A program made the translations under genes and the position numbers. From assembly GCA_003194485.1 (NCBI GenBank), contig PQXD01000009.1:41008-105007 (forward strand): a DNA stretch of 64,000 nucleotides. Direction: 5' to 3'. The notes under the pieces are model-generated. The model ran no database searches. It was not told the origin of the DNA and worked only from the letters and a program-made list of their open reading frames with translations. Below, piece after piece: positions 4,793 through 53,958 of the stretch (the first letter of the stretch is position 1; the number at the start of each line of letters is the position of its first letter). Source of the DNA: Deltaproteobacteria bacterium (GTDB lineage: Bacteria > Desulfobacterota > Dissulfuribacteria > Dissulfuribacterales > UBA3076).

Positions 4793-4987
4793 GTAAATAT
4801 TCGGTGAACCCTTTATATCCTGCCTTGAAGCGGTTACCTTTTTCCGGGTTTCAAAGCTCACTCATTGCAGACCGGAGAGGCAGTGCAATCCGGCCCGCGA
4901 TCGAAACCCTGCAAAAGGTAAACCGCTCCTGCGGCAGGGCACGGATGGCAACTTCCACAGCGGACCGCGGGTTCACCGAATATTTAC
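4793..4987. mobile_element. MITE family A, full-length 195 bp
   Basis: Perfect 19-bp TIR gtaaatattcggtgaaccc/gggttcaccgaatatttac. Flanks gttgtttt (4785-92) and gttgcttt (4988-95) form a 7/8 TSD. Confidence 0.9.
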
Positions 4988-5038
4988 GTTGCTTTGACCT
5001 TACAACTTTGAGGATGTTCCGCCGTAAACAGTTACGAA

Positions 5039-5737
5039 TCAAGCTATTTCTCCCCAAAAAGTGACGCCTTCTAACGTCATTCCTTTTGCATACGCCTTTG
5101 CACTTTGGTCTGCCCTGCGGAGGGGCTCGGATATTCTGTATCTGGATGAAAGATTCAGAATTACTTCTATTGACGTTTTCAGGCTTACTCCATGCCCTGG
5201 ACTGACAAAGACAGGCTTTGTATTGTCCCGTGTTACTAAGACTGCACCGATTACCCCTTTCTCATCCTTGATGAACAGGCAATTCCCTCTCTTCTTATCT
5301 ATTTTTCCATTGTAATGCATCAAAGTCTCTTTAGCACAACCTATTGAGGGGATGTCAGTATTCACACCAATCCAGCAGGCAACTCCAAAACGTCTTGGAT
5401 GTGCTATCCCGTGCCCATCCACAATGATCAATTCGGGCTGCAGAGACAGGCGCTTTTTGGCTGCTTCCAGCATTTCCAGCAACAGAGGCCCTTCCCTGAA
5501 GCAAAAGAATTGCGGTACGTATGGGACTTCTACCTTTGCAGTACCTACATAAGTGCCAACAATTCCACCTTTCCATTTCTGCACATCCAATGCAATACAG
5601 GCCTTATCTTTCACATAGTGGACATCCAGACTAAAAATGATATCATATTCTTGCGGATGGTAACCTGAATCATCGGGCGGAATACACACTTTTTGCGCCA
5701 GCTTTTTCTGCAGTTCGGCCAAGTATGTCCTGTTCAT
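5039..5737 (-). CDS. nfi: Endonuclease V
   Basis: YVPQFFCFREGP, IVDGHGIAHPRRFGVAC, IGCAK, PVFVSPGH and EPLRRAD motifs. Confidence 0.92.
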   Translation of the reverse strand: MNRTYLAELQKKLAQKVCIPPDDSGYHPQEYDIIFSLDVHYVKDKACIALDVQKWKGGIVGTYVGTAKVEVPYVPQFFCFREGPLLLEMLEAAKKRLSLQPELIIVDGHGIAHPRRFGVACWIGVNTDIPSIGCAKETLMHYNGKIDKKRGNCLFIKDEKGVIGAVLVTRDNTKPVFVSPGHGVSLKTSIEVILNLSSRYRISEPLRRADQSAKAYAKGMTLEGVTFWGEIA

Positions 5738-5831
5738 TGAGTATCTGTTTTCATTTTGTCATGATCCTGTTATTAATGACCGAATATAAGAGAGGTAAAA
5801 TATTTTCATCCGTGTATTTTTGAGGTTCGTC

Positions 5832-6683
5832 ATGAAATATTCGTGGCTGTTGATATCAGTCACCTTTAGAGACGGAAACAATTCAGAACCTGCGCACACA
5901 TATCAGCATAGGCTGTTTCCGAAATCTTACAATAAGACCGGCTTTGGTGCCTTTTTTCTTGTTTTTTTCCTCTTTTTTCATTTATCAGGTTGCGGGCACC
6001 GGCATATATCGCCTCCAACAATATCCATTCGGCGATTACCTGCAACCCAGCGTCCCTATGAGGTGAATGGACACGTTTACTATCCCTTGCCCTCTGCCGA
6101 AGGCTTTGTGGAGGAAGGGTATGCATCCTGGTATGGAGGCAAGTTTCACGGAAGGCCGACCGCCAGCGGCGAGCCATACAACATGTATGCCATGACTGCT
6201 GCCCACCGCATATTGCCCATGAATACATATGTCAGAGTAATCAACCTTGAAAATGGGCGGGAAGTCGTAGCCAGGATCAGCGACCGCGGGCCTTTTGCCA
6301 AGAACAGGATTATAGATCTCAGCTATGGGGCAGCCAGGAAGGTGGGGCTGATCGGTCCGGGTGTGGCAAGAGTGAGGATAGAGGCGCTGGGAGAGGTCCG
6401 GCCTGGAGCCGGAATTCCCGCGGTATTTAAGCCACACCCTGATTTCAGAAGAGGGAAATTCTATGTACAGGTAGGGGCCTTTTTGGAACCGGATAACGCT
6501 TATGCCCTGGGGCGAAAAATAAACAGATATTATAAGGATGTGGCTGTATTTCGCCAACAAAGAGGAGATCAGACCTTTTACCTGGTGCAGGTATTTGCAT
6601 CCACCGAGTATAATACGGCCAAGGACTTTGAAGCCAGGCTTGAAAGCTCAGGTTTCCCGGAGGCTTTTGTGGTTGCCAGATGA
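5832..6683 (+). CDS. rlpA: Septal ring lytic transglycosylase RlpA family lipoprotein with SPOR domain
   Basis: Lipobox LSGC, ASWYG, TASGEPYNM...TAAHR, RISDRGPF...RIIDLS and C-terminal YVQVGAF SPOR domain. The start is uncertain (5820/5832). Confidence 0.9.
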   Translation: MKYSWLLISVTFRDGNNSEPAHTYQHRLFPKSYNKTGFGAFFLVFFLFFHLSGCGHRHISPPTISIRRLPATQRPYEVNGHVYYPLPSAEGFVEEGYASWYGGKFHGRPTASGEPYNMYAMTAAHRILPMNTYVRVINLENGREVVARISDRGPFAKNRIIDLSYGAARKVGLIGPGVARVRIEALGEVRPGAGIPAVFKPHPDFRRGKFYVQVGAFLEPDNAYALGRKINRYYKDVAVFRQQRGDQTFYLVQVFASTEYNTAKDFEARLESSGFPEAFVVAR

Positions 6684-6705
6684 GGTGGAGAGGCCTGTAT
6701 CTTGC

Positions 6706-6734
6706 TTGACAGGTATCTCTGTGGGCCGTAATTT
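6706..6734 (+). promoter_or_regulatory. Putative sigma70 promoter of the T2SS operon
   Basis: TTGACA (6706-11), 17-nt spacer, TAATTT (6729-34), about 45 nt upstream of gspG TTG. Confidence 0.4.
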
Positions 6735-6777
6735 AATTAGTAATGATTTGAGCATGATATTGTCGGAGGTATTATTT

Positions 6778-7227
6778 TTGAGAAAAAGACTGAATGACCG
6801 TGGTCTTGCAAGGGGCATTGAGAGAGATTCGGGTTTTACCTTGATCGAGCTCCTGGTAGTGGTGATAATCATCGGACTCTTGGCTTCCCTGGTGGCACCC
6901 AAATTTTTCGGAAAGCTGGGAATGAGCAAACAAAAGGCCGCAAAGGCCCAGATCGAGCTCTTTGGCGCCGCCCTTGACGAGTTTCGCCTGGATAACGGTC
7001 GTTATCCTGATACTGAGGAGGGCCTTTCGGCCTTGCGGGAAAAGCCGGATGATCTTGAAAACTGGGCCGGGCCCTATCTGCCCAAGGCCGTTCCAAAGGA
7101 TCCGTGGGGACACGAATACGTCTACAAATCTCCCGGAGAGCACTATGACTATGATCTGATCAGCTACGGCCGTGACGGTGAGCCAGGTGGAGAAGGTGAA
7201 GACTCGGACATAGTAAGTTGGAAGTGA
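6778..7227 (+). CDS. gspG: T2SS major pseudopilin GspG
   Basis: SG|FTLIELLVV prepilin site, YPDTEEGLSAL, W.GPYL...PKDPWG...Y. GGAGG at 6765-69 precedes TTG 6778. Confidence 0.95.
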   Translation: MRKRLNDRGLARGIERDSGFTLIELLVVVIIIGLLASLVAPKFFGKLGMSKQKAAKAQIELFGAALDEFRLDNGRYPDTEEGLSALREKPDDLENWAGPYLPKAVPKDPWGHEYVYKSPGEHYDYDLISYGRDGEPGGEGEDSDIVSWK

Positions 7228-7232
7228 AGTAA

Positions 7233-8885
7233 TTGGGTGATCCTGTGAATATTCAAAACGTAGGATCTCGCCTGGTGTCTTTATTCAAAGGGAAAGGCGG
7301 GAACGGATTCCAAAACGCAGGCGGCGATCAGGTTCCTGGAGCCGAATCAAACTTAGCGGAGATTTCAGGGCCGGGATTTCCTGAAATAAGTGCGGCTGAT
7401 TTCCCAGACAAGCCACCCATGATTAATGGGCTGTCTCCGCAGCTAATGCGGCAGTGGCGGGTCGTCACACTGTCCCTGGACGACTCTGAAGCCAGGGTGG
7501 CCATGGCCACGCCCCAGGATCTGTACATGAGGGAGCTCCTTGAAAGTATTTACCAGAAGCCGGTCAGGCCCTTTCTCGCCAGTGAAGAGGATATCCTGGC
7601 CGCTGTTTACAGGTGGTACGAAGCCGATTCGGACCTGGGAGGAGAGGAGTCAGAGGACGAATCACGCGCTGTTGATGAGCTGTGGGAAGATCCTGAACAG
7701 TTGCGGGACCTTGCCTCCGAGGCCCCTGTGATACGTCTTGTAAACCACGTTATCAGCCAGGCCCTTGAAGTAAAGGCCTCAGATATACATTTTGAGCCGT
7801 TCAGGGATCTCTTGAAGGTAAGGTTCCGTATAGATGGAGTCCTTCACGACATCGAGACGGTCTCAAAAAGGCTACAGCCTGCGATTACCTCACGGCTGAA
7901 GCTTATGGGCAAGATGAATATCGCTGAGATGCGCTTGCCTCAGGACGGGCGCATCAAGGTCCGCGAAGGGCAAAGAGAGATCGACATAAGGGTCTCTTCT
8001 CTGCCCACCCTTTTTGGGGAAAGTGTAGTGCTCAGGCTCCTGAACCGGGAGGAGGTCCGGCTGGAACTTGAAACCCTCGGGATTTCAGCCGATATACTGG
8101 GAGATTTTGAAAAGATAATTTCAAGGCCCTATGGGCTGGTCCTGGTCACCGGTCCGACCGGCAGCGGGAAGACCACTACTCTTTACGGGGTCATGAACCG
8201 CATCAATGCCCCTGACAAGAAGATTGTAACAGTAGAAGACCCGGTTGAGTATCAGCTCGATGGAATAAATCAGATCCAGATCCGTCCTGAGATAGGGTTG
8301 GGCTTTGCCTCCGCCCTCCGCAATATCCTCAGGCAGGACCCGGACGTGATACTTATAGGGGAGATCAGGGACGCTGAGACCGCCGAGATTGCCATACAGT
8401 CCGCCCTTACCGGACATCTTGTATTTTCTACCCTTCACACAAACGATGCTGCAAGTGCAATTACCAGGTTGCAGGAAATGGGCATCGAGTCTTATCTTTT
8501 GTCTTCCTGCCTGCTGGCAGTGATGGCCCAGAGACTGGTGAGGAAGATCTGTCCCCATTGCCGGACTTCCTATGATCTGCCGCCCGGTTTTTTAGATGAG
8601 GTAGTTCAGGCCCTTGGAGCGGACAATATCCAGGCCCCATCCGAGGTCTGGCGGGGTAAGGGTTGCGCTCACTGCGCCAATACGGGGTTTTCAGGTCGTA
8701 CCGGCATATACGAGCTGATCAGGGTGGATGACGAGATAAGAAGAATGATAGTAAAGGGTGCTGACAGCAGCTCAATCCTTTCCAAGGCACAATCCCTGGG
8801 CATGAGGACGCTCCGTCAGGACGGCCTTCTAAAGGTCCTTGCAGCTCAGACAACCTTTGAAGAGGTTATGAGAGTCACTAATTAA
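7233..8885 (+). CDS. gspE: T2SS ATPase GspE
   Basis: ASDIHFEP, GPTGSGKTTTLY Walker [32 protein letters not shown] and Cys-pair Zn motif. Confidence 0.95.
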   Translation: MGDPVNIQNVGSRLVSLFKGKGGNGFQNAGGDQVPGAESNLAEISGPGFPEISAADFPDKPPMINGLSPQLMRQWRVVTLSLDDSEARVAMATPQDLYMRELLESIYQKPVRPFLASEEDILAAVYRWYEADSDLGGEESEDESRAVDELWEDPEQLRDLASEAPVIRLVNHVISQALEVKASDIHFEPFRDLLKVRFRIDGVLHDIETVSKRLQPAITSRLKLMGKMNIAEMRLPQDGRIKVREGQREIDIRVSSLPTLFGESVVLRLLNREEVRLELETLGISADILGDFEKIISRPYGLVLVTGPTGSGKTTTLYGVMNRINAPDKKIVTVEDPVEYQLDGINQIQIRPEIGLGFASALRNILRQDPDVILIGEIRDAETAEIAIQSALTGHLVFSTLHTNDAASAITRLQEMGIESYLLSSCLLAVMAQRLVRKICPHCRTSYDLPPGFLDEVVQALGADNIQAPSEVWRGKGCAHCANTGFSGRTGIYELIRVDDEIRRMIVKGADSSSILSKAQSLGMRTLRQDGLLKVLAAQTTFEEVMRVTN

Positions 8886-8886
8886 A

Positions 8887-10092
8887 ATGCCTACCTTTGC
8901 TTATGAGGCCCTGGATGTTAAAGGGCAAAAAATTCAGGGGACCGGCGAGGCTTCAAGCCAGGATCTCTTAATTTCTATGCTGATCTCTAAGGGCCTTCAG
9001 CCTGTCAGGGTTAAGAGGCTGAAGCGGTTTTATGCTTTGTGGAGCAGGAAAGGGGTCAGGTTCAGACATGATGATCTCCTCTACTTCACCAGGGAATTGG
9101 CTGATCTTCTGGAGGCCGGTGTCCCTCTGGAACGGGCTCTGGCCGTCGTGGAAGATGCTGCTGAGCAAAAGACAATACGTGAGCTGATTAATACCATAAG
9201 ACGGGAGATCCAGGGGGGTAAAAAGCTGTCAGAGGCCTTATCTTCCTATCCGGACATCTTCAACCGCCTCTACATCAATATGATACGGGTTGGGGAGTTG
9301 GGAGGTGTCCTCCCCATGGTTCTTAAAAGGTTGGATGGTTTCATCGAGCGTTCAAGAAATATTCGAAAGTTTATTATTACTTCATCGATCTATCCCGGCA
9401 TCCTGGCCCTTGTGGGCATCCTGTCCGTCTTTATCCTGGTGACCTTTGTAGTGCCAAAGTTTGGCCAGATCTTTGAGGATCTCAATCAGCCTATGCCCCT
9501 GGCCACCAGGTTAATAGTCAGGGCCAGCATGTTTCTTCAGTCATGGTGGTGGCTGTTATGCCTGGTTATTCTTGTACTTGGCACCGGTTTTTACTCCTAT
9601 ATCAAGACACCTGATGGAAGGGCCTGGTGGGACAGGGCAGTGCTTCGCCTGCCCTTGGCCGGCTCCATGTTGCTGAAGATAGAACTCGGTCGTCTGGCCC
9701 GCACCATGGGTACCTTGCTTGAGAGCGGTGTTCCCATACTCAAGGGTATTTCCCTCTCGGGAGAAGTGGTGTCCAACAGCGTCATACGGGGTGCTGTGGA
9801 GGACCTGTATAAGGGGGTCCGCCAGGGAAAGAGTCTCAGTCAGCTTATGAAACAGGCAAAGGTGTTTCCGTCACTCATGGTACATCTGGTGGCTATTGGG
9901 GAGGAAACAGGGGCCATGGGGCCCATGCTTCTGAAGATTGCAGATGATCTCGAAGAAAGGGTCCAGCACGATACCAAGGTCTATCTGTCCTTGGTGGAAC
10001 CTGTAACCATAGTACTGATGGGAATTATTATCGGCGGGATTATCCTGTCCATGCTCCTTGCCATATTCGGTATTAATGATGTGGCCTTATAA
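8887..10092 (+). CDS. gspF: T2SS inner membrane platform protein GspF
   Basis: MPTFAYEALD start, GELGG, IYP, GEETG motifs and three TM segments. Confidence 0.93.
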   Translation: MPTFAYEALDVKGQKIQGTGEASSQDLLISMLISKGLQPVRVKRLKRFYALWSRKGVRFRHDDLLYFTRELADLLEAGVPLERALAVVEDAAEQKTIRELINTIRREIQGGKKLSEALSSYPDIFNRLYINMIRVGELGGVLPMVLKRLDGFIERSRNIRKFIITSSIYPGILALVGILSVFILVTFVVPKFGQIFEDLNQPMPLATRLIVRASMFLQSWWWLLCLVILVLGTGFYSYIKTPDGRAWWDRAVLRLPLAGSMLLKIELGRLARTMGTLLESGVPILKGISLSGEVVSNSVIRGAVEDLYKGVRQGKSLSQLMKQAKVFPSLMVHLVAIGEETGAMGPMLLKIADDLEERVQHDTKVYLSLVEPVTIVLMGIIIGGIILSMLLAIFGINDVAL

Positions 10093-10101
10093 AAGGTCAA
10101 A

Positions 10102-10337
10102 GTAACCGTTCAATGGTTCAAAGGTTTACAGTTCAGAGGTTCAAGGGTTTACCGAAAATTTGAACCGTTGATTCGTGAGTTCTGAATGGAGAAGGCATGA
10201 GAATAGAACAATAGAGCAATGATAAATCAACAATCAACAATCAACAATCCAATGAGGCATGGCACTTGGCCCGAGACCTAACTCGCAAGGTCAAGGGAAG
10301 AAAGGTAACCCTGAACCCTGAACCCTTGAACGGTCAC
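10102..10337. mobile_element. MITE family B (GTAACCGTTCA-type TIR, heptamer-rich), 236 bp, inserted in the gspH leader
   Basis: TIR gtaaccgttcaa / ttgaacggtcac (11/12). Flanks aggtcaaa (10094-101) and aggtcaag (10338-45) form a 7/8 TSD. Internal GGTTCAA-, AATCAAC- and CCCTGAA-type repeats. Confidence 0.8.
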
Positions 10338-10775
10338 AGGTCAAGGGGTTTTACGCTAATTGAGCTCCTCGTGGTACTGGTACTTATAGGCATTTTCAGT
10401 TCCCTGGTCTTTGTGGCAGTTGCCGGCGGGATACTTCGGTCTGAAGAGAGGCGTTTTGTGCAGTCCTTTACACAGACCCTGGTCCGCGCCAGGTCCGCAG
10501 GTCTGGGTAGAGGCGAGGCAGTCAGGTTTTTGATTGATGGTGAGAGCAGGACCTTTTGTGTTGAAGGTCTCAAATGGCAGGATATACCCGAGTCCATAAA
10601 GGTAGAAGGCAAGGGAGTGGGCGCAGTGGAACCAGGTATCCATGCCGTGACCTTTTATCCTGACGGAAGCTCAAGCGGCGGTGAGATTGACCTCAAGTGG
10701 GAAGGAGGTCGCATGGACCGGATAGTGATAGACAGGTTCCTGGGGCTGGTAGGCATGGAGCGCATTTCATCGTGA
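10266..10775 (+). CDS. gspH: T2SS minor pseudopilin GspH with MITE-derived leader
   Basis: RSRG|FTLIELL site and VTFYPDGSSSGG GspH/FimT motif. The only in-frame start is TTG 10266 (GAGG 8 nt upstream), which lies inside the MITE. Confidence 0.85.
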   Translation: MARDLTRKVKGRKVTLNPEPLNGHRSRGFTLIELLVVLVLIGIFSSLVFVAVAGGILRSEERRFVQSFTQTLVRARSAGLGRGEAVRFLIDGESRTFCVEGLKWQDIPESIKVEGKGVGAVEPGIHAVTFYPDGSSSGGEIDLKWEGGRMDRIVIDRFLGLVGMERISS

Positions 10776-11200
10776 CAATCACTAAATCGTCAAATCGTCA
10801 AATCGTCAAATCGTCAGGTTTTACCCTCATAGAGGTCCTGGTTGCCACGGCAATAATGGGTATCGCGCTTGGAGTGCTGCTTTCCGGCTTTGCGCAGGGC
10901 CACAGGCAGGCCTTCAGGGGCGACATGGCCAGAGAGGCAGCGTATATAGCAGAGTCCGTGCTTTATGGATTGCTCCATGAGCCTGAATCCCTGTCTCCGG
11001 GTGAGGAGGACGTAAAAGATCATCCCGGATGGAGCTATAAGGTGGAAGTTCGGGACCTGGTCTTGAAGATAACGGTCCAGGACCAGGAAGAGAAAGAGAT
11101 CGAGATCCCCGAACTGAAGGAGCTTATTCTTACCGTACAACCTCCGTATAATGCACATCCTTTTGTATTGACCAGCTGGATACCGGCAGAGCAGATATGA
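10772..11200 (+). CDS. gspI: T2SS minor pseudopilin GspI
   Basis: SSG|FTLIEVLVA. GTG start overlaps the gspH stop (GTGA 10772-75). Confidence 0.85.
   Translation: MTITKSSNRQIVKSSGFTLIEVLVATAIMGIALGVLLSGFAQGHRQAFRGDMAREAAYIAESVLYGLLHEPESLSPGEEDVKDHPGWSYKVEVRDLVLKITVQDQEEKEIEIPELKELILTVQPPYNAHPFVLTSWIPAEQI
10784..10816 (+). repeat. Tandem repeat (AAATCGTC)x4 within the gspI leader
   Basis: Four perfect 8-bp units at 10784, 10792, 10800 and 10808. Confidence 0.95.
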
Positions 11201-11877
11201 GGAAAAAATCAATCACCAGATCCTCAGGCTTTACCCTGCTTGAACTCCTGATCTCAGTCACCCTCATTGCCGTGCTGGTCCTCATACTTTCCATGGCTGT
11301 CCGTACAGGACTGAGGGCCTACAGCAGGGGTAAAAAGATCAACAAACGTCTGATAGTTGTATCCTCCATTGAAGGACTTTTGGGAAGACAGCTCAGGGCC
11401 GTGGTGGCGGACGGATCTGATCTCAAGGATTTTTCCGAGTTTAATGGGAAAGAGAACGAGATATCCTTTGTGACTACCCACGTACCGCTTGGTTCCCAGG
11501 CAGGTGGCCTTTTCAGGGTAGTTTATCGTTTTGATGAAAAAAGAAAAAAGCTCATCTATGCCCAGAAGGTCATCACCAGGCCCGAAGACCTGAAAGAACC
11601 CCTTCCTGACAACATAGATCAGGAAGATAAAGAGGACCTGACGGAACAGGGCTGGGGCGTTTCGATCATAAACGGGATAGATTCGCTGGCCTTTACATAT
11701 CAAAGTCAATTGCCGGATGAATCCGACCCTGAGGATTGGCAGGATAACTGGAGTCAAAAGGGTAATGTGCCCGAGGCTGTAGCCATGGGCCTGGCCTTTT
11801 CCGATAATGGTAAGGAGCCTGTAACCACTTGGCGAGTTTTTTATACAAGTCCTTTTATTCTGGTAAGTGCAAAGTGA
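11197..11877 (+). CDS. gspJ: T2SS minor pseudopilin GspJ
   Basis: SSG|FTLLELLIS, C-terminal W...W....PEAV motif, ATGA overlap with gspI. Confidence 0.88.
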   Translation: MRKKSITRSSGFTLLELLISVTLIAVLVLILSMAVRTGLRAYSRGKKINKRLIVVSSIEGLLGRQLRAVVADGSDLKDFSEFNGKENEISFVTTHVPLGSQAGGLFRVVYRFDEKRKKLIYAQKVITRPEDLKEPLPDNIDQEDKEDLTEQGWGVSIINGIDSLAFTYQSQLPDESDPEDWQDNWSQKGNVPEAVAMGLAFSDNGKEPVTTWRVFYTSPFILVSAK

Positions 11878-24702: not shown

Positions 24703-25422
24703 TTGTCTCGCATGATCTGTGTCTCCCTGGCTGAACCTACCTGTGATGCCCTGCTGAGGCGTCTGCAACAGGTGGCGGCAAAAGCCGACCTGGCAGAGAT
24801 TCGTCTGGATGCTCTTGCTGATGCGGAATCCCTGGATTTTGCAAGCTTATTAAAAAATCGGCCCTGTCCTCTTATTTTCACTAATAGGTCTTCGAAAGAG
24901 GGAGGTCTTTTTTCAGGTTCAGAAGAAGAACGAATCAGCCTTTTGGGAAAGGCCGTATCCGAAGGGGCGGATTATGTTGATATTGAGCTCAGAACAGATC
25001 CGGTCTTAAGAGACGCTGTAATAAAAGAGGTCCGTAGGACCGGGATAAAAGTCATTATTTCCTACCACGATTTTTCCTGCACTCCGGCAAAGGAGAAGCT
25101 GATCGAAGTATTTGATTCGGAAAGGCGGGCCGGCGCAGACATTGGGAAGATCGTCACCTTGGCTGAGGGTTTGCAGGATGTCTTGAAGGTATTATCTCTG
25201 CACTTCAGGGCAATGGATGACGGTCTTTCTTTAATAGCCTTCTGTATGGGGCCTTTGGGAAAGATGAGCAGGCTTGCCTGCCTGGCGCTGGGGGGTTATC
25301 TGACCTATGCGTCTCCGGCCAGGGGTCATGAGACCGCTCCGGGGCAAATACCACTGGACGACTTGAAGGCTATGGTTGATTACCTGAGCTGTAATGGAAA
25401 AAAATTAATATCTGAAACGTAA
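24703..25422 (+). CDS. aroD: Type I 3-dehydroquinate dehydratase
   Basis: EIRLDAL, YVDIEL, IISYHDF, ADIGKIV, MGPLGKMSRL and TAPGQI. Confidence 0.93.
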   Translation: MSRMICVSLAEPTCDALLRRLQQVAAKADLAEIRLDALADAESLDFASLLKNRPCPLIFTNRSSKEGGLFSGSEEERISLLGKAVSEGADYVDIELRTDPVLRDAVIKEVRRTGIKVIISYHDFSCTPAKEKLIEVFDSERRAGADIGKIVTLAEGLQDVLKVLSLHFRAMDDGLSLIAFCMGPLGKMSRLACLALGGYLTYASPARGHETAPGQIPLDDLKAMVDYLSCNGKKLISET

Positions 25423-25452
25423 ATATTCTTATGAAACAGTTATATCCAGCCT
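25419..25452. mobile_element. MITE family A left-end remnant providing the aroD stop codon
   Basis: gtaaatattcttatgaaacagttatatccagcct matches the family-A left end. The aroD TAA (25420-22) is the TAA of the terminal GTAA. Confidence 0.75.
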
Positions 25453-34016: not shown

Positions 34017-34190
34017 TAAGGAAATTGGTTAAAACCTTCCTCTGTAAAATTTTTTGCAAAGCTCTTAAGGCCCCTTTATAGTATAATACCTTAGTAATTA
34101 TTTTTGCGTTTTTTCTGGCAGAAAATTCTGAAACACAATCACGAAAACACGAAAGATTGAAGGCACGAAATAAAACAACATTCAGGCCTG

Positions 34191-38653: not shown

Positions 38654-38849
38654 GTAAATATCCGGTGACCCCGTGGTCCACTGTGGAAGTTGCCATCCGT
38701 GCCCTGCCGCAGGAGCGGTTTGCCTTTTGCAGGGTTTCGATCGCGGGCCGGATTGCACTGCCTCTCCGGTCCGCGATGAGTGAGCTTTGAAACCCGGAAA
38801 AAAGGTAACCGCTTCAAGGCAGGATATAACGGGTTCACCGAATATTTAC
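38654..38849. mobile_element. MITE family A, full-length 196 bp (reverse orientation)
   Basis: TIRs gtaaatatccggtgacccc/gggttcaccgaatatttac. Flanks taaaccgg (38646-53) and taaactgg (38850-57). Confidence 0.9.
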
Positions 38850-40099
38850 TAAACTGGATGATTAACCGCGGTTATGAAGTCCCTTTGCTCATAAAGCTTC
38901 CGGGTGAAGTCCTGGGCCTTGAGTTCGGGATGAACGCTGCATCCCGGCCCTATTGTTATACCTTGTGGAATTTGGGTGCGGATGCCGATTACGGTGAGCG
39001 CCCCGTCCTGCTTGCCAATCACGGAATCCCTTCCGATGCTGGCACCAATGTCGGTTATAGCGCGCTCAACCCTGGCCCCTGGTCCTATTTGAGTGTCAAA
39101 AAACAGTATCGAATCTTTTACCTCTGCCCCTACTCCTACGTAAGCTCCTGGAAAAAGAATCGATCGAGAGACTCGCCCTTCGATCCTGACCCCGTTATAA
39201 AGCCTTGAGTTTTCTATGGAGCCTTGAGGGCCGATAAGTGCGGGGCCTCGATCTCTTATTGCCTCATGGTCCAGGTTGGTGCATATCTGCCATTCGGACA
39301 GTTTTATTTCAGGGTGTTCTCCCAGGAGATCCATATTGGCGGCCCAATACTCCTCAAAGGTGCGGCAGTATCCCCAATAACCGTGAAATTTGTAACCATA
39401 TACCTTATGCCTGCTCAATATGGCAGGGAATATATCCCGGCCGAACTCATGGGAGTCAATTCCGGCATTTTCCTCCAGGGCCTGGTACAAGATCCCGGCC
39501 TTGAACAGGTATATAGTCATGGAAGCCCAGTTCGATGCAGGATGGGCCGGTTTCTCTGAATATCCCAGGAGACGGCCTCCCCTTGTGTCGTCTTCAGAAA
39601 TCAGGGCCAGGCCGAATCTGGACGAACCTGCCTGAGAGACCTGAACAAAGGAGGCAGTGACATCGGCCCCGGTATCCAGATGAAATTGAATGATTTCCTG
39701 ATAATCCATGTGATAGATATGGTCGCCTGATAAGATCAATACAAGATCTGGCTTGTGGGCATGGATAAAATCAAGGTTTTGATATACCGCATCAGCCGTG
39801 CCCTTGTACCAGTCTGAGGCGTGCAAGCCTTGAAAGGGAGGCAGGAGAGTGATGCCGCGGTGTCTGCCTATCATGTCCCAGGAGGCGCCTGTCCCGATGT
39901 GCTCTATTAGAGATGAGGACCTGTACTGGCCGAGAATTCCGACCCTCTCGATGCCCGATTGCATGAGGTTGCTGAGAGGGAAGTCTATGAATCTGTACAG
40001 GCCTCCGAAAGGTACTGTGGACTTGGGCCTGAGGAAGGTAAGGACCCCGAGTTCATCAACCCTGCCGCCGGCAAGGAGCATGGCTAAGGTTTTCGGCAT
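38849..40099 (-). CDS. Glucose-1-phosphate adenylyltransferase-like protein (GlgC/GlgD family, atypical)
   Basis: LAGGRVDEL...RPKSTVPFGGLYRFIDF, WYKGTADAVYQN, ILSGDHIYHMDY, SEKP, HEFGRDIFP and a beta-helix tail. Confidence 0.88.
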   Translation of the reverse strand: MPKTLAMLLAGGRVDELGVLTFLRPKSTVPFGGLYRFIDFPLSNLMQSGIERVGILGQYRSSSLIEHIGTGASWDMIGRHRGITLLPPFQGLHASDWYKGTADAVYQNLDFIHAHKPDLVLILSGDHIYHMDYQEIIQFHLDTGADVTASFVQVSQAGSSRFGLALISEDDTRGGRLLGYSEKPAHPASNWASMTIYLFKAGILYQALEENAGIDSHEFGRDIFPAILSRHKVYGYKFHGYWGYCRTFEEYWAANMDLLGEHPEIKLSEWQICTNLDHEAIRDRGPALIGPQGSIENSRLYNGVRIEGRVSRSILFPGAYVGVGAEVKDSILFFDTQIGPGARVERAITDIGASIGRDSVIGKQDGALTVIGIRTQIPQGITIGPGCSVHPELKAQDFTRKLYEQRDFITAVNHPV

Positions 40100-41661: not shown

Positions 41662-41856
41662 GTAAATATCCGGTGAACCCGTGGTCCGCTGCGGGAGTTG
41701 CCATCCGTGCCCTGCCGCAGGAGCGGTTTGCCTTTTGCGGGGTTTCAACCGCGGGCCGGATTGCACTGCCTCTCCGGTCTGCGATGAGTGAGCTTTGAAA
41801 CCCGGAAAAAGGTAACCGCTCCAAGGCAGAATATAACGGGTTCACCGAATATTTAC
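41662..41856. mobile_element. MITE family A, full-length 195 bp with perfect TSD
   Basis: TIRs gtaaatatccggtgaaccc/gggttcaccgaatatttac. Identical 8-bp flanks cttacaat (41654-61, 41857-64). Confidence 0.95.
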
Positions 41857-42765: not shown

Positions 42766-42888
42766 GTAAATATTCTGAGGCAGTGCAATCCGGCCCGCGA
42801 CCCAAAACCCTGCAGAAGACAAACCGCTTCTGCGGCAGGGCATGGATGGCAACTTCCGCAGCGGACCACTGGTTTACTGAATATTTAC
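42766..42888. mobile_element. MITE family A, internally deleted (123 bp)
   Basis: gtaaatattc joined to tgaggcagtgcaatcc..., right end ggtttactgaatatttac. Flanks match 5/8. Confidence 0.8.
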
Positions 42889-43885: not shown

Positions 43886-44031
43886 CCGGGTTTCAAAGCT
43901 CACTCATCGCGGACCGGAGAGGCAGTGCAATCCGGCCCGCTATCCAAAACCCCGCAAAAGGCAAACCGCTCCTGCGGCAGGGCACGGATGGCAACTTCCG
44001 TAGCGGACCACGGGTTCATAAGAATATTTAC
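43886..44031. mobile_element. MITE family A, left-truncated
   Basis: ccgggtttcaaagctcac...gggttcataagaatatttac, with the first ~45 bp missing. Confidence 0.88.
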
Positions 44032-44169
44032 CTTAAAGCATAGCGGAATCATAACTCAATTGACAGGACTTTGTAATCCCTTTTGATCCCAAACGGAGAT
44101 GATAGATGGTGAGCAGTTGAAATGACTTGTATAAGGAGTAGATCTTACGGAACTTCTGGCCGGATACGG

Positions 44170-44242
44170 GTAAATATTCTTATGAACCCTTTATATCCTG
44201 TCTTGGAAGCGCAGCGGACCACGGGTTCACCGAATATTTTAC
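44170..44242. mobile_element. MITE family A, minimal 73-bp derivative
   Basis: Both TIRs are kept (gtaaatattcttatgaaccc ... gggttcaccgaatattttac) and most of the core is deleted. Confidence 0.82.
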
Positions 44243-45345: not shown

Positions 45346-45362
45346 AGCAACACTTGTGCCAG
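45346..45362 (-). promoter_or_regulatory. sigma54 promoter upstream of fliA
   Basis: Minus strand CTGGCACAAGTGTTGCT = consensus TGGCAC-N5-TTGC. Confidence 0.8.
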
Positions 45363-45670: not shown

Positions 45671-45688
45671 TTGTCAATATTTTGACAA
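45671..45688. promoter_or_regulatory. Perfect dyad TTGTCAA-N4-TTGACAA, putative transcription factor site
   Basis: Perfect inverted repeat. A second dyad, ATGACAA-N4-TTGTCAT, lies at 45713-45730. Confidence 0.5.
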
Positions 45689-45726
45689 CAATTAACAATT
45701 TGTGTAAAGAAAATGACAATTTTTTG

Positions 45727-47034: not shown

Positions 47035-47068
47035 ATTTGGAAAATACTCTTTTCTTGAGCGGAATCAT

Positions 47069-48019
47069 TCACCGGCCCATTCTCCAATCCAAAGTTTTTT
47101 CAATACCTTCGGAAAGAACTGTCCTGGGTTTCCAGCCCAGTACATCCTCGGCCAGATTTATCTTCAGGCAACTTTTTTTGAGATCTCCAGGCCTCGCAAG
47201 GGTCCTGTCCGGTGTCATGAGAGAATTGCTCAGAAGACGTCTGCTGGAAATTACATCAAAGATGGTCTCAAAGAGGAGCTGGGTCCTGGTTTCCTTCCCG
47301 GTGCCAATATTTACGGCCTTTTTATTTCCTGCCTCGAGGGCAAGGAGATTTGCCTCAACGACATCTCCCACATAGCAGTAGTCCCTGATCATACCCTCAG
47401 GCTCAGAAGGAAAATGAAAAAGCGTACAGGGCCTGTTTTCGAGTAATCTGTCCATGAAAATGGCCACCACTCCTGCCTCGCCATGAGGTATCTGCCTGGG
47501 GCCATAGATGTTTGAATAGCGTAAAACAGTATAGTCCAATTCGTATTGGTGCCCGTAAAAGTGAAGGTAGCTTTCTGAAGCCGCCTTTGTTATGGCATAA
47601 GGGGACAGGGGCTGCAGGGAACAGTCCTCAGAGGTGGGGTACTCTTCAGCCTCTCCATAGATGGCCCCCCCTGAGGATATGAATATGACCTTGTGTGTCC
47701 CGACTCTCCTGGCGCCTTCCAGCAGGTTTATAAAACCCTCGATATTCACTGAGGCGTCAAATCCGGGGTCTTCCACAGAAGCAGGTACGGAGATTTGCGC
47801 TGCGTGGTGATTTATCACCTCAGGCCTTTCGTACTCCAGGAGTTTGCGTATCTCAGGGGCCCTGATGTCCATTAAATAGAACCTTGCCTCGGGATGCAGG
47901 TTTTCCCGTTTTCCTGTATACAGATTGTCTACCACTACGACTTCATGACCTGCCTCTATATAGGCATCAGCCACATTTGAACCTATAAAACCAGCCCCGC
48001 CGGTTACAAGGATTTTCAT
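47069..48019 (-). CDS. NAD-dependent epimerase/dehydratase (UDP-glucose 4-epimerase-like)
   Basis: VTGGAGFIGS, HHAAQISV, ISSGGAIYG, YAITK, LRYSNIYGPRQ and RDYCYVGDV. Confidence 0.92.
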   Translation of the reverse strand: MKILVTGGAGFIGSNVADAYIEAGHEVVVVDNLYTGKRENLHPEARFYLMDIRAPEIRKLLEYERPEVINHHAAQISVPASVEDPGFDASVNIEGFINLLEGARRVGTHKVIFISSGGAIYGEAEEYPTSEDCSLQPLSPYAITKAASESYLHFYGHQYELDYTVLRYSNIYGPRQIPHGEAGVVAIFMDRLLENRPCTLFHFPSEPEGMIRDYCYVGDVVEANLLALEAGNKKAVNIGTGKETRTQLLFETIFDVISSRRLLSNSLMTPDRTLARPGDLKKSCLKINLAEDVLGWKPRTVLSEGIEKTLDWRMGR

Positions 48020-48175
48020 ACCTAAGGATCTCCTTAATTAAAAGTATTATCATGCTATCATGGTTATAGAAGCTCTCGCAAGAAATGTGGGCGATTTTAT
48101 TCTCTTGGGCCAATTTCAAAAATATAACTGAATTTGCTGGACGTAATACGAATCGATAAATATTATTAAGGGACA

Positions 48176-48574
48176 GTAAATATTCTTATGAACCCGTGGT
48201 CTCAAGTAACCGTTCACAGGAAGGGGATATTTCTTTTCACTTAACACTTCAGCCCCTTGTTTTCTTAAGGCTTTTGACATGGGGGATGTCCTGCCCCCTC
48301 TGCATTCGCCTTACGCTGCGCTCAGGCGATGCAGTTTCCCCCACAGCAAAAGCCGAGAAAACTACGGGGGCTTCCGTTAAACTGTTCAAAGAAATATCCC
48401 CTGCCAGTGAACGGTTGCCATCCGTGCCCTGCCGCAGGAGCGGTTTGCCTTTTGCGGGGTTTTGGGTAGCGGGCCGGATTGCACTGCCTCTCCGGTCTGC
48501 GATGAGTGAGCTTTGAAACCCGGAAAAAGGTAACCGCTTCAGGGCAGGATATAACGGGTTCACCGAATATTTAC
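48176..48574. mobile_element. Composite MITE (family A, 399 bp) carrying a nested family-B-type element at 48206..48418
   Basis: Outer A TIRs with flanks aagggaca/aagggacc. Inner TIRs gtaaccgttcacaggaaggggatatttctt / aagaaatatcccctgccagtgaacggttgc. Confidence 0.9.
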
Positions 48575-48611
48575 AAGGGACCGGTAATATTGTGAAGAAA
48601 TAGGATTAATT

Positions 48612-50495
48612 ATGCCTGAAGTAACCTTTTTGCCAGCCAATATGACCGTAAAAGCGAACCAGGATGAAAATCTGCTGAGGATAGCCATGAGGGCCGGTGT
48701 ATATATCAATTCCTTATGCGGTGGGGCAGGGGTATGTAACAAGTGCCGCATTCTTCTGGAACGGGGCCGGGTCCGGGGAGAGGCCCTGCCGGAAGGCGGA
48801 TGGAAGGCCTGCGCCACCTTTCCGGTCTCAGACGTGGTGGTCCGTGTACCAGTTGAATATGAAATGGACCGAAAGGTACTCAGGCGGCCGATGGCCAGAA
48901 AGGCTGCATCCTGGATCAAGGCCCAGGAAGAGCCTGTAACCTGGAAGCTGCATCCTGCTGTGCGAAAACGCGTTATTAACCTGCCCCAGCCAAGCCTTCA
49001 GGACAGTGCAAGCGACCTCGACAGGCTGATGCGCGAGATTGTCCAGGGCAGGCTCCAGGCGATTTCAATGGAGGTAGACAGCCAGATTCTCTTTAATTTG
49101 CCGGAATCGATACGGAACAAAGACTGGAGAGTCACTGTCAGCTTAATGGAAGGAGCAAAGAAAGACGTCCGTCGCCTCATTCGTGTGGAGCCTGGTGATG
49201 CAACGGACCAGCATCTTGCCGTGGCCGTGGATATAGGGACTACCACGGTGTCGGCCCAGTTGTTGGATCTCGGGAGCGGAGCGGTCCTGGCAGAGGCATC
49301 CAATTACAATCCGCAGATCAGTTATGGGGAAGATATCATCTCCCGGATGGAGTTTGCCAGAAGAAAAGAGGGCCTGAAGACCCTGCAAAAAAAGATAGCC
49401 GAATGCCTCAATGGGCTCATAGGAGAACTCCTTTCAGATGCGGACCGGGGGAAGGACGCCTTGAGTCTGATTACTGTTGCCGCAAATACCGTAATGATTC
49501 ATCTTCTTCTTGGACTTGATACGCGTTTTTTGAGGACCCAGCCCTATACTCCTGTCGCCACCCGATTCCCTCCGGTAAGGGCCATAGAGTCAGGCATAAA
49601 TGTTCCTGAGCACGTGCGCGTGTTTTTAGGCCCCTGTGTTGCCAGTTACGTCGGTGCGGATATCGTGGCCGGAGTAGTAGGCGTAGGGCTTAACCGCCGC
49701 CCGGAACTTACGCTTTTCATAGATATAGGGACAAACGGAGAGATCGTCCTTGGAAATCAGGACTGGATGGCCTGTGCAGCCTGCTCTGCAGGTCCTGCCT
49801 TTGAGGGGGGCGGCATAAAGCACGGCATGCGAGCCACCACAGGGGCAGTGGAGGTGGTGTACATACATCCCGGGACTTTTGAACCCATGGTCTTGACCAT
49901 TGGCGGCAGAAAGGCCAAGGGAATATGCGGATCAGGCATAATCAGCCTGCTTGCAGGCCTTTTCATGGCAGGTGTGCTGGATCAGCAGGGAAAGTTTCAT
50001 ACCGGCCTGGGGACGAAAAGGGTCCGCTTTGGCAGGGATGGCTGGGAATACGTGGTAATAGAGGCGGAATCCACTTCCATAGGTCAGGATATTGTGTTTA
50101 CAGAGGCAGACATTGAGAATCTCATCAGGGCAAAAGGTGCCATGTTTGCCGGTTATTTTACTTTGCTGGAATCGGTGGGTATGGGATTTGAGGACCTGGA
50201 ACGGGTAATACTGGCCGGCAATTTTGGAAGCTACCTGGATATTGACCAGGCCATCACCATAGGACTCCTTCCGGATATTCCAAGGGACCGATTCTTTTTC
50301 GCAGGCAACAGCTCTCTCCTCGGGGCAAAGGCCTCGGCTGTTTCCCGGTCTGTTATGAAAGAGCTGCACGAGGTCGCTCAGATGATGACACACTTTGACC
50401 TAAGCGATAACCCGAGGTTCATGGAACACTATGTCTCCTGCCTGTTCCTGCCTCATACGGATCAGAAACTGTTCCCCTCAGTCAGGCTGGACTGA
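48612..50495 (+). CDS. ASKHA-domain [2Fe-2S] reductive activator of corrinoid proteins (RACo/DUF4445)
   Basis: CGGAGVCNKC...KAC ferredoxin, AVDIGTTTV, IDIGTNGEI, CSAGPAFEGG, GICGSG and GNSSLLGA. Confidence 0.93.
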   Translation: MPEVTFLPANMTVKANQDENLLRIAMRAGVYINSLCGGAGVCNKCRILLERGRVRGEALPEGGWKACATFPVSDVVVRVPVEYEMDRKVLRRPMARKAASWIKAQEEPVTWKLHPAVRKRVINLPQPSLQDSASDLDRLMREIVQGRLQAISMEVDSQILFNLPESIRNKDWRVTVSLMEGAKKDVRRLIRVEPGDATDQHLAVAVDIGTTTVSAQLLDLGSGAVLAEASNYNPQISYGEDIISRMEFARRKEGLKTLQKKIAECLNGLIGELLSDADRGKDALSLITVAANTVMIHLLLGLDTRFLRTQPYTPVATRFPPVRAIESGINVPEHVRVFLGPCVASYVGADIVAGVVGVGLNRRPELTLFIDIGTNGEIVLGNQDWMACAACSAGPAFEGGGIKHGMRATTGAVEVVYIHPGTFEPMVLTIGGRKAKGICGSGIISLLAGLFMAGVLDQQGKFHTGLGTKRVRFGRDGWEYVVIEAESTSIGQDIVFTEADIENLIRAKGAMFAGYFTLLESVGMGFEDLERVILAGNFGSYLDIDQAITIGLLPDIPRDRFFFAGNSSLLGAKASAVSRSVMKELHEVAQMMTHFDLSDNPRFMEHYVSCLFLPHTDQKLFPSVRLD

Positions 50496-52148
50496 TTTCA
50501 TTGCATTCCTGAAGGCCTCTGCGTAATCTTCCGGGTAGTGACCTGTGATCCATCTTTCCTGCCTTTCGCTGAAAGCACCCGGGGAACGGGATGCTCTGGG
50601 CAGAAAGCAGTAAAAGAGACGCTGGTCCATATCCGGATTGTCGAAACGTTTTGAGATCTCATAGCCCGTGACCATCTGGGCCCCCATACAGTCCAGGGTC
50701 CGGATTACGAGCTCGATGCACTTATCCAGTGACTTTCGGACCTCCGGGTCCGCCTCAAGCACATTACCCACCGGACAAGTGGTCATAATCTGGACCTCGC
50801 CATGGAAGCGCTGGGCCTTGGGGATATGGATCATGACGTTTTCATCCTCGTGAACAATCAAACTTGATGGCAGGTCTTTTTTCCCGTCCAATCTTTTGTT
50901 GGAACGGATTGCCCTTAAATATGTCTTAAAAAAGGGGTGTCCACAGGCCTTTTCGTAAAGAGCGGAAAAGCGGGCCACCTGATCTCCTACTGCATAGGTA
51001 GAGATTGATTTTGAGCCGGCACCCCCTGTATCCACTGATTTCACATTGGGAGGTATAAGGGCAAACTGCTGGTGAATCTGTTGGTGGGATGCATGTAATC
51101 TGTATCCTGATGGAGAGAAATCAAAGCCGTAGTTCCAGCCCCAAAGGGTGGCTGTATAAGGCAGGCCCTCTCCGCTCTCAAGCCTCTTTGCAACTTCCTT
51201 CAGCACTGACTGTCTCATGGATTCAATCTCAGCGACCGGCAAAGTGTTCCTGCCTTCCCGGGAAATTCCCTTCGCAATATCGAGATTGACGGCCATTTGA
51301 GTATAGACCCGCTGGTAATAGAGGTGACGCAGGCCCGTTATATCATCGGGAAGCAGTTCCGCTGCCCTGTACCTCACACAGTCATGAGCCATATTAGATG
51401 CATAATGACCCCATGGAATATAGCTGTCTGCCCTGAGATATTCCCATACGTGTGTCTTGCAGCCGGATGCATATTCGCCGACAATCGGGCTGCTTCCCTG
51501 AATCCCTGGAATTAATACCATGGCAAGCTTATAATTATATGGACAGGCCATATTGTTACCAATCACATCAAAGAGTTCCTGGTCAAATAGGACCGGTTTG
51601 GGATGGCCCAGTTCGTCATACTCATATTTCACGCCAACCGGGTTCCCGCTGTCGTCAAGCTCAAACTTACATGCCAAATGTGCCATCGCCTTGAGGAGCC
51701 TGCTGTCCCTGGATGTCTGGGCCAGGGACAAGAGAACGGGCCTCGGGAGGTCTTTCAGGGAATAAGCCCTTTCGTTCGAACCCTTTAAGCGCCCATTCAA
51801 CAGGTCTTCCAGTAATGGCGAACGCCTGCCGGACCCCTCGTCGCTTCTCCTGAATCCGAGTCTTTTCGGGTCCTTTGAAAATTGCTCTGCCTGATCATAA
51901 AGTATGTATGTGGCACCCCAGAAAGGAAAGGCATTCGGGATCTCATAGACTTTGCCGGCATTGTTGATAACAAGGTCGCCCCTGGGGAAGTTGACCCGGT
52001 TATTAATTGCATTGCCGTCTGAATCATGGCCCAGCACGGCCAAAGTTTCAGTCCGCCTGAGGTTTACAACTTTGTAAGATGGCTCGTGAAGGGCACAAAT
52101 AAAAACCCCTGACGGATCTATGCACGTGCAAAGGATGTCTTGATTCAC
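50478..52148 (-). CDS. Hypothetical protein with GalT/HIT-like nucleotidyltransferase motifs
   Basis: WGWNYG...HASHQQIHQQ and HEDENVMIHIPKAQRFHGEVQI segments. The assignment is an inference. Confidence 0.6.
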   Translation of the reverse strand: MNQDILCTCIDPSGVFICALHEPSYKVVNLRRTETLAVLGHDSDGNAINNRVNFPRGDLVINNAGKVYEIPNAFPFWGATYILYDQAEQFSKDPKRLGFRRSDEGSGRRSPLLEDLLNGRLKGSNERAYSLKDLPRPVLLSLAQTSRDSRLLKAMAHLACKFELDDSGNPVGVKYEYDELGHPKPVLFDQELFDVIGNNMACPYNYKLAMVLIPGIQGSSPIVGEYASGCKTHVWEYLRADSYIPWGHYASNMAHDCVRYRAAELLPDDITGLRHLYYQRVYTQMAVNLDIAKGISREGRNTLPVAEIESMRQSVLKEVAKRLESGEGLPYTATLWGWNYGFDFSPSGYRLHASHQQIHQQFALIPPNVKSVDTGGAGSKSISTYAVGDQVARFSALYEKACGHPFFKTYLRAIRSNKRLDGKKDLPSSLIVHEDENVMIHIPKAQRFHGEVQIMTTCPVGNVLEADPEVRKSLDKCIELVIRTLDCMGAQMVTGYEISKRFDNPDMDQRLFYCFLPRASRSPGAFSERQERWITGHYPEDYAEAFRNAMKSVQPD

Positions 52149-52314
52149 ATTACTCCATCCTCAATAATAAATATTTATGAGTTATTTCCATTGACTCCAG
52201 ATATCTCTTTATACTTGTACAGTCAAGGTGCAGACGATTATTCCAAGATTATAAACAATTTGCACGAGTAAATCATGTCCTGATCGAATATGTTATAGTT
52301 AATCATCGGAGGAG

Positions 52315-52376
52315 AATTTTGAATGGTGAATTAATAATTTAAAATCTTATAACTTTTTCCTCCATAATTCAAAATT
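52315..52376. repeat. AT-rich heptamer-type inverted repeat upstream of rtcA
   Basis: aattttgaat (52315-24) / attcaaaatt (52367-76). Confidence 0.45.
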
Positions 52377-52430
52377 TAGCATTCAGTAACTCAGCATCAT
52401 AATCTATTAATGTCTGGTATGTAAAAAAAC

Positions 52431-53465
52431 ATGATTATTATCGACGGTTCCTATGGAGAGGGAGGGGGCCAGATTCTGAGGAGCTCCCTGGCCCTTTCCA
52501 TGATCACCGGACAGGCTATTGAAATCCTGAATATTCGTGCCAGGAGGCCGAAGCCCGGCCTTCGTCCACAGCATCTGACTTGTGTAAAAGCGGCTGCCTC
52601 GGTATGTGGAGCCCGGCTGGAAGGAGCTGAGTTCGGTTCGCAGCGCCTGGTATTTATCCCGGGTAAAGTAAAACCGGGTAATTATAGCTTTGCCGTAGGT
52701 ACCGCCGGCTCTGTCATGCTGGTTTTTCAGACCGTACTTCTTCCTCTGGCCCTTTCCCCCGGCCCTTCTGAGATTACTTTTACAGGCGGCACCCATGTCC
52801 CGTGGAGTCCGTGCTTTCACTATATTGACCTTGTATTTAGGCCTGCCGTATCTGCCATGGGAATATTATTTGAAATGGAGCTTGAGAGATGGGGTTACTA
52901 CCCAAAAGGAGAGGGGATAGTAAGGACAAGAATTCTGCCGTCAGAGGGTCTCGGTTCCTTCAGGCCGGTTCCCCGGAGAGGAGAAAGAGTCTGCGTTAAG
53001 GCCATTTCGGCCACGGCCTGCCTGCCTGGCCACGTCAGGAAAAGGCAGTCCGCACGAGTAAAATCTGTTTTGGAGGGCAGAGAAATCGAGGTAGATGTAG
53101 AAGAAATGGAGGGATCTGCCATGTGCCCGGGCAGCCTCCTGTTCTGCTGGATATCCGGTCAGGGGAGATATGGTGGTTTCACCGGGCTGGGCGCAAGAGG
53201 CAAGCCTGCCGAGAAGGTTGCTGATGAAGCGGTTTCCGGACTATTGGCCTTTCTGGACAGTGGCGCAGCCTGCGACAAATACCTTTCTGATCAAATACTG
53301 CTCCCGGCAGTGCTTGCACGTGGAGAGAGTCAATGGTCCACAAACTCTATAAGCAATCACCTTCTCACAAACATATGGGTGACCGGACGCTTTGGGCTCG
53401 GCAAGGTGAAGCTGCTGGAAGAAGACGGGAAATCCGGCTTGATCAAATGTTACGGAACCGATTAA
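52431..53465 (+). CDS. rtcA: RNA 3'-terminal phosphate cyclase
   Basis: IDGSYGEGGGQILR, RPKPGLRPQH, TAGSV.LVFQ, GGTHV, GYYPKG, YLSDQ and HLLTN. Confidence 0.96.
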   Translation: MIIIDGSYGEGGGQILRSSLALSMITGQAIEILNIRARRPKPGLRPQHLTCVKAAASVCGARLEGAEFGSQRLVFIPGKVKPGNYSFAVGTAGSVMLVFQTVLLPLALSPGPSEITFTGGTHVPWSPCFHYIDLVFRPAVSAMGILFEMELERWGYYPKGEGIVRTRILPSEGLGSFRPVPRRGERVCVKAISATACLPGHVRKRQSARVKSVLEGREIEVDVEEMEGSAMCPGSLLFCWISGQGRYGGFTGLGARGKPAEKVADEAVSGLLAFLDSGAACDKYLSDQILLPAVLARGESQWSTNSISNHLLTNIWVTGRFGLGKVKLLEEDGKSGLIKCYGTD

Positions 53466-53559
53466 GACATCCTGGAAATTTGCAATCCGTTGTAATCATC
53501 GGTATCCGGCGTCAGTCGGCCTTTGCCGCCATTACGGAACGATAGGATCAAGAGGAGAT

Positions 53560-53958
53560 GTAAATATCCGGTGAACCCGTTATATCCTGCCTTGAAGCGG
53601 TTGCCTTTTTCCGGGTTTCAAAGCTCACTCATCGCGGACCGGAGAGGCAGTGCAATCCGGCCCGCGATCGAAACCCTGCAAAAGGCAAACCGCTCCTGCG
53701 GCAGGGCGCGGATGGCAACCGTTCACAGGAAGGGGATATTTCTTTGAACAGTTTATAACGGAAGCCCCCGTAGTTTTCTCGGCTTTTGCTGTGGGGGAAA
53801 CTGCATCGCCTTAAGCGCAGCGTAGGGCGAATGCAGAGGGGGCAGGACATCCCCCATGTCAAAAGCCTTAAGAAAACAAGGGGCTGAAGTGTGAAGTGAA
53901 AAGAAATATCCCCTTCCGTGAACGGTTATGTAGGGTCACGGGTTCACCGGATATTTAC
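53560..53958. mobile_element. Composite MITE (family A, 399 bp) with nested element at 53715..53929
   Basis: Near reverse complement of 48176..48574. Flanks gaggagat/aaggagat. Confidence 0.9.

Follow-up and report, generated by a model that had tools for sequence, protein, structure and literature searches.

GTAA-ended miniature inverted-repeat elements with 8-bp target duplications, probably mobilised by an IS66-family transposase, in a deltaproteobacterial genome

The window analysed here is a stretch of 64,000 nucleotides (C87:41008-105007) from the draft genome of a Deltaproteobacteria bacterium (2.55 Mb in 87 contigs, 47% G+C, 110 kb of N). It holds ten members of one family of short, gene-less elements with terminal inverted repeats (TIRs), here denoted family A. 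Five are complete, two are deleted copies with both ends, and three are remnants (Table 1); their density is typical of the genome. We consider it highly likely that family A is a miniature inverted-repeat transposable element, or MITE, moved by an IS66-family transposase that shares its ends, the source of which was lost from this genome or never resided in it. All ten copies lie where the first-pass annotation of this DNA had placed them, and the 8-bp target-site duplications (TSDs) it reported, perfect at 41662 and 7/8 at 4793, 38654, 48176 and 53560, gave the same values in our hands. Its TIR length of 19 bp is extended to 19-21 bp, the consensus of 60 copies being a perfect 21-mer, and of its size series of 73/123/195/399 bp the upper three hold while the smallest copy is 72 bp, not 73. 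It had seen no transposase in the window; consistent with this, a repeat scan of the window found no repeat longer than 416 bp and, therefore, no multi-copy transposase gene.

Table 1. Family-A elements in the window (positions are those of the window).
Element	Position	Strand	Termini, flanks and remarks
Complete 195-bp copy	4793-4987	-	TSD 4785-4792 GTTGTTTT / 4988-4995 GTTGCTTT, 7/8; 97.4% to 195-bp consensus
Truncated long-form copy	23217-~23320	+	One terminus and ~100 bp; other end gone
Terminal remnant, 34 bp	25419-25452	-	Variant end GTAAATATTCTTATGAA
Complete 196-bp copy	38654-38849	+	TSD TAAACCGG/TAAACTGG, 7/8
Complete 195-bp copy	41662-41856	+	TSD CTTACAAT, perfect 8/8; folds into a single long hairpin (-57.7 kcal/mol, z = -8.1)
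Internally deleted 123-bp copy	42766-42888	-	Both termini retained; flanks 5/8
146-bp remnant	43886-44031	-	Window-left end short by ~50 bp; variant terminus GTAAATATTCTTATGAACCC at 44031
Mini copy, 72 bp	44170-44241	-	Two ends only; flanks 6/8
Long form, 399 bp	48176-48574	+	TSD AAGGGACA/AAGGGACC, 7/8; 195-type shell and ~212-bp internal hairpin module, GTAACCGTTCAC-type repeats
Long form, 399 bp	53560-53958	-	TSD GAGGAGAT/AAGGAGAT, 7/8

Several of these copies touch the neighbouring open reading frames (ORFs). The copy at 4793-4987 sits in the spacer separating two minus-strand ORFs, and the copy at 38654-38849 adjoins the 3' end of ORF 38849-40099 (minus strand). The stop codon of ORF 24703-25422 is the TAA of the GTAA terminus of the remnant at 25419, and the AAGGAG ribosome-binding site of ORF 53973-55889 is the right TSD copy (53959) of the 53560 insertion. 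We also noticed that in three metagenomes contigs join 44032 to 44169, so that the 136 bp separating two MITE remnants are omitted; on its shorter side this joint has just 28 bases, and it may be a repeat artefact.

To count family A genome-wide, we searched for a terminus pattern consisting of GTAAATAT, C or T, C, and either GGTGAACC or TTATGAAC, allowing up to 3 mismatches. This search detected 361 termini, compared with 0 in the reversed genome, a chance control that was run with a stricter single-terminus pattern. The termini formed 127 plus/minus pairs, mainly ~195 bp (n=60) and ~399 bp (n=31) apart, with a few near 600 bp. Merging of BLAST matches to the consensus sequences of the 195-bp and 399-bp forms gave ~251 loci, one per 9.7 kb, which together cover 51 kb or 2.1% of the non-N genome; this number bears out the hundreds of copies anticipated earlier from the density in the window. 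The family-A repeats are far beyond chance. The eight bases on each side of 103 paired elements were identical in 56 cases and differed by one mismatch in another 22 (78/103 in total), as against ~1 for shuffled flank pairs; at offsets of 6, 7, 9 and 10 bp the same 103 elements showed background identity only, and some apparent failures are boundaries shifted by one base.

Target sites were reconstructed by a script that removed each element and one duplicate. Only 6 of 78 sites fell within a long open frame (at least 50 codons on both sides), as against 70% of random positions, demonstrating that family-A sites are strongly intergenic. The duplicated 8-mers have 36% G+C, compared with 47% for the genome, and show no consensus. 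Median divergence from consensus is 3.6% for the 195-bp copies (range 1-21%) and 6% for the 399-bp copies, and the closest pair of copies is 0.5% apart. The idea of mostly older, fixed insertions, put forward in the first-pass annotation, fits the window but not the whole genome, where perfect duplications make up 54% and the youngest copies differ from consensus by 1%.

The 195-bp consensus of 60 copies carries a perfect 21-bp TIR, GTAAATATTCGGTGAACCCGT (written shorter, GTAAATATTCGGTGAACC), and folds into a single long imperfect hairpin of -57.7 kcal/mol, compared with -30.3 for shuffled sequences (z = -8.1). Three terminus variants are freely mixed within pairs. In the 399-bp form the 195-bp shell contains an additional module of ~212 bp, which is also a hairpin and has GTAACCGTTCAC-type repeats at its borders. 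A second GTAA-ended MITE family is present in the window at 10102-10337 (ends GTAACCGTTCAA/GTGACCGTTCAA, flanks AGGTCAAA/AGGTCAAG); elsewhere the genome has free copies of this GTAACCGTTCAC-ended family, 117-202 bp long and flanked by 8-bp duplications, and one member makes up the inner module of the 399-bp form. Because such free elements exist, the 399-bp form is most simply read as one GTAA-ended MITE within another, then spread as a unit, and we no longer take the 212-bp module for an integral component of family A. No duplication was detectable on the two sides of the inner element of the 399-bp form; the reverse order, in which the short form arose from the long form by deletion, is possible. 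Open frames of 104-106 codons run through the 399-bp form, but they were excluded as coding since their length is shuffle-like (107 against a 95th percentile of 115), their strand differs between copies and they have no Pfam match. A search of Rfam with the family-A element gave no match. Family A thus has the features of a MITE: a size below ~600 bp with TIRs, a fixed 8-bp TSD, no coding capacity, and many copies together with an autonomous element that shares its ends, the latter found in same-genus metagenome-assembled genomes (MAGs) and metagenomes only. Family-A MITEs are also landing sites for other insertion sequences (IS), at C1:80224-83507, C1:17343-19550 and C33:103790-105998, with interiors that are mostly N.

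To follow the insertions in populations, contigs from other metagenomes with the same organism were mapped onto the window. Two small runs, X1 and X2, hold the whole window and are probably the source sample. Such contig data can demonstrate presence and cannot prove absence. Metagenome contigs were broken at every MITE border. Six runs (X3, X4, X5, X7, X8 and X12) contain a joint from 53559 to 53966 that omits the 399-bp copy and seven bases; the joint is absent from X1 and X2. In X12 the depths of the empty (15.8) and filled (23.2) alleles sum to the flank depth of 37-40. The 53560 insertion is a presence/absence polymorphism in natural populations. A search for empty sites had been proposed as a check on the original annotation, and 53560 is the one polymorphic site it yielded: no empty allele was found in metagenome contigs at 38654, 41662, 42766, 43886, 44170 and 48176, nor in four metagenomes at two young copies on contig C44. 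At the gene end next to 38654 the MITE is missing in 16 same-genus genomes; we rejected this as a cross-species empty site, since the coding flank alone is conserved and the spacers are unalignable, so that it shows absence and not a single 8-mer.

Among 40 genomes of relatives, 17 from the same genus and 23 sampled from other genera, the TIR was counted 0-2 times per same-genus genome and 0 times in the others, compared with 229 in the present genome. In one congener (G007) a long ORF starting 127 bp after the TIR encodes an IS66 transposase (PF03050, E = 3.6e-57). Complete elements of this kind, here denoted the partner, were found in a MAG and in metagenomes, with lengths of 2743 bp (L021:3-2745 and L023:127-2869) and 2736 bp (L020:1957-4692). 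The partner ends, GTAAATATTCGGTGAACCC and GTAAATATTCGGTGAACCT, match the MITE TIR at 19/19 and 18/19 positions; the similarity reaches approximately base 27 of the ends, and nothing is shared beyond. ORF1 (555 aa) is an IS66 transposase (PF03050, E = 6.9e-60; 292 bits with the NF033517 equivalog model, whose cut-off is 180), and ORF2 (290 aa), which overlaps the ORF1 stop codon, is DruA/DUF4338-like (PF14236, E = 1.7e-47). The element thus comprises TnpC and a DruA-like ORF only, without TnpA/TnpB. With respect to duplication length, one 8-mer, AATTATTT, is found in G007 both at the left junction of one partner copy and at the right junction of a different one, and a related TnpC and DruA element with 24-bp ends starting GTAATTTCTCAATAAGTC has a copy (L061) with a perfect 8-bp TSD, ACTTTAGG; together these indirectly support an 8-bp rule for the partner group. 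The same end, together with a transposase of 79% identity, is found on a contig of the MAG E20SeepSRB2, and by this match the genus belongs in or close to the Seep-SRB2 lineage. At an orthologous locus of two congeners (G007:C212:~8220-8443 and G017:C6:24149-24373) we noticed an internally deleted partner IS with one TIR and transposase codons 34-82, which may be a deletion-type MITE in the making.

Elements of the IS66 family have inverted repeats of ~20-30 bp starting GTAA (GTAAGCG) and 8-bp direct repeats (PMC11946415), and in the ISBst12 group, which has one ORF, the TIR reads GTAAC... and the direct repeat is 8 bp long (PMC12898284). Here we found a DDE_Tnp_IS66 transposase on an element with these TIRs, repeats starting GTAA and an 8-bp duplication at the MITEs; tnpA/tnpB accessory genes and a cognate transposase in the same genome were not found. 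Because the partner is without TnpA/TnpB, it resembles the ISBst12 group, not canonical IS66. The IS66 origin that the first-pass annotation deduced from GTAA ends and 8-bp duplications is therefore supported by the same TIR on an element with an IS66 transposase; the autonomous TnpABC element it had suggested looking for exists as an IS66-type element, but one of TnpC and DruA-like composition and outside this genome.

The sole PF03050 match in the present genome is one broken gene that runs from the end of contig C54 to the start of C27 and carries a TGA. The IS66 and DruA element to which it belongs has its own perfect 18-bp ends, GTAACTTCTCAATAAGTC, and these different ends exclude it as the partner. 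The gene is interrupted by a ~125-bp repeat with ends TATACAC...GTGTATA (C54:3201-3334 = C27:1-134), which joins the two contigs and is probably another MITE family. No match to TnpB (PF05717) was found in the genome. Contigs of X1 and X2 share with the partner just a 24-bp end and a conserved DruA piece. In a large metagenome the organism has a depth of ~550-600 whereas transposase-like contigs have a depth of 3-8, indicating that these contigs belong to something else. On these comparisons, the partner is best read as absent from this assembly and from the source-sample contigs, leaving the family-A swarm orphaned here.

What was observed are the termini themselves, their 8-bp TSDs, the number of copies, an IS66 element with identical ends and a single insertion that varies between presence and absence; we infer mobilisation by the partner transposase rather than another, and loss of the source. 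According to this explanation, family A would be a non-autonomous fold-back hairpin of 195 bp, or a 399-bp form with an extra hairpin module, whose 21-bp GTAA-starting inverted repeats would be recognised in trans by an IS66-family DDE transposase that cuts the target with an 8-bp stagger. The cognate autonomous element would be the 2.74-kb element of same-genus genomes, with its 555-aa IS66 transposase and 290-aa DruA/DUF4338-like ORF. Because the MITE and the partner IS have no more than the first ~27 bp of their ends in common, the MITE would be an end-capture element rather than a product of deletion from that IS. Since the autonomous element is undetectable in this genome, the ~250 copies are best read as the legacy of a lineage-specific burst, with survivors almost only between genes and in AT-rich targets.

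Several observations weigh against this explanation. Neither tblastn nor a whole-genome search of the assembly found a homologue of the partner transposase; partner DNA matches this genome only over 32 or fewer terminal bp and in the DruA gene of the other, broken IS; and no transposase piece was found in the X1 and X2 contigs at 80% likeness. The evidence for mobilisation thus comes from sister genomes, not from this one. As to the absence of the partner, 110 kb of the assembly is N, and contigs can demonstrate only what is present. The variant end GTAAATATTCTTATGAAC, present on a quarter of the termini, is unseen on the autonomous element. No TSD was found at the complete partner copies with both flanks (L020 and L023); the element is multi-copy and both contigs are short ones from metagenomes, and it is possible that these contigs are chimeric. 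In addition, the sequence of the empty 53560 allele, GAGGAGAT-AG-TAAAA, is longer by three bases than the simple loss of the element and one 8-mer would leave.

We also weighed other sources of the swarm. The mover could be a resident transposase hidden in the assembly gaps, or a resident multi-copy IS that is IS4-like (DDE_Tnp_1_4, a weak match) or IS1182-like. The assembly has 81 N runs, totalling 110 kb and many of them inside IS copies, the polymorphism at 53560 means that activity may be recent, and TIR-bounded units of 2208, 2209 and 3284 bp do contain transposase genes. We rejected these units as autonomous copies, since each is a MITE into which an unrelated IS has inserted, at internal positions that differ: the IS1182-like element is nested at two different positions of the long form, and the IS4-like element, of which there are at least seven copies at 100% identity, stops ~240 bp short of the MITE terminus and is also found elsewhere, at 100% identity, without MITE ends. 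Furthermore, no gap edge carries subterminal sequence of the partner IS or of another element having these TIRs, and the only IS66-type gene here is broken and has different ends. Together these data make a resident mover unlikely.

We regard as somewhat less probable still that the hairpin core is kept for a host function, such as transcript stability or processing in operon spacers, with transposition serving only to spread it. The strong fold, the intergenic position of nearly all sites, and the ribosome-binding site and stop codon contributed by the 53560 copy and the 25419 remnant are compatible with such a role. However, Rfam holds no match, purifying selection against gene disruption yields an intergenic bias for any transposon, the inverted-repeat build of fold-back MITEs by itself gives a hairpin shape, and the 53560 copy is dispensable in part of the population. 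An origin by recombination or replication as palindromic repeats of the REP/BIME or ERIC type, rather than as transposons, has hardly any probability left: these repeats are likewise palindromic, intergenic and numerous but lack defined TIRs and fixed-length target duplications, whereas family A has sharp termini and exact 8-bp duplications, the statistics of which already refute this origin, as well as the same termini on a transposase-bearing element and one site at which the insertion is present or absent. RAYT (Y1) transposases are associated with REP elements.

Further short repeats lie in the window at 34084-34187 (104 bp) and 61868-61995 (128 bp); each recurs 2-3 times elsewhere in the genome.

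Bacterial MITEs that are moved in trans include Correia, RUP, Nezha and Chunjie. Family A is a tidy but ordinary piece of bacterial mobile DNA of this known kind, with IS66-type ends. Like other members of that kind, such as the ~240-bp MITE of Cardinium derived from IS982 (PMC9769881) and MITEPsy1/2 of Pseudomonas syringae (PMC3189936), it is small, hairpin-forming, numerous and intergenic, with a TSD and TIRs shared with an IS; it differs from them in its IS66-type ends, its 8-bp duplication and the absence of the cognate IS from the host genome. No description of an IS66-derived MITE was found in the literature searched. Among autonomous elements, the partner is most like the ISBst12-like IS66 group, e.g. 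ISDge4 of Deinococcus geothermalis (PMC12898284), in its DDE_Tnp_IS66 domain, lack of TnpA/TnpB and GTAA repeats, and the MITE shares the end type and duplication length of that group. The partner differs in its additional, DruA/DUF4338-like ORF, which overlaps the stop codon of the transposase, and the window elements differ in being gene-less, 72-399 bp long and unrelated to the IS in their interior.

We noticed that a DruA/DUF4338-like ORF of ~290 aa directly follows an IS66-type transposase, overlapping it or at a distance of 40 nt or less, at L021:1789-2664, L061:1898-2767 and C27:~858-1730. The partner IS, the broken IS66 element of this genome and 4/5 unrelated contig sets sampled all show the pairing, and more than 8000 DruA-like clusters of similar size (E <= 1e-20) lie mostly on 1-4-kb contigs. 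No report of DUF4338 paired with IS66 was found in the literature searched. We propose, tentatively and at rather low probability, that the partner is a member of a two-gene branch of IS66, very large and apparently undescribed, whose accessory protein is not TnpA/TnpB but a homologue of DruA, known from Druantia defence. Should transposition require ORF2, for example in handling the long hairpin ends that the MITEs mimic, DruA would gain a first biochemical role, and a transposon module would become tied to an anti-phage system.

The transposase lies below ~1% of the organism's depth in a population where the swarm remains polymorphic, and mobilisation might, as an equally tentative reading, be by an enzyme from elements of neighbouring cells. 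Family A explains ~2% of the genome, many contig breaks and several junctions at gene ends and ribosome-binding sites, and therefore annotators should mask it. It offers a clean example of an IS66-type MITE and an example of a MITE burst outliving its transposase, and the regular pairing of an IS66 transposase with a DruA-like protein may interest those who study Druantia.

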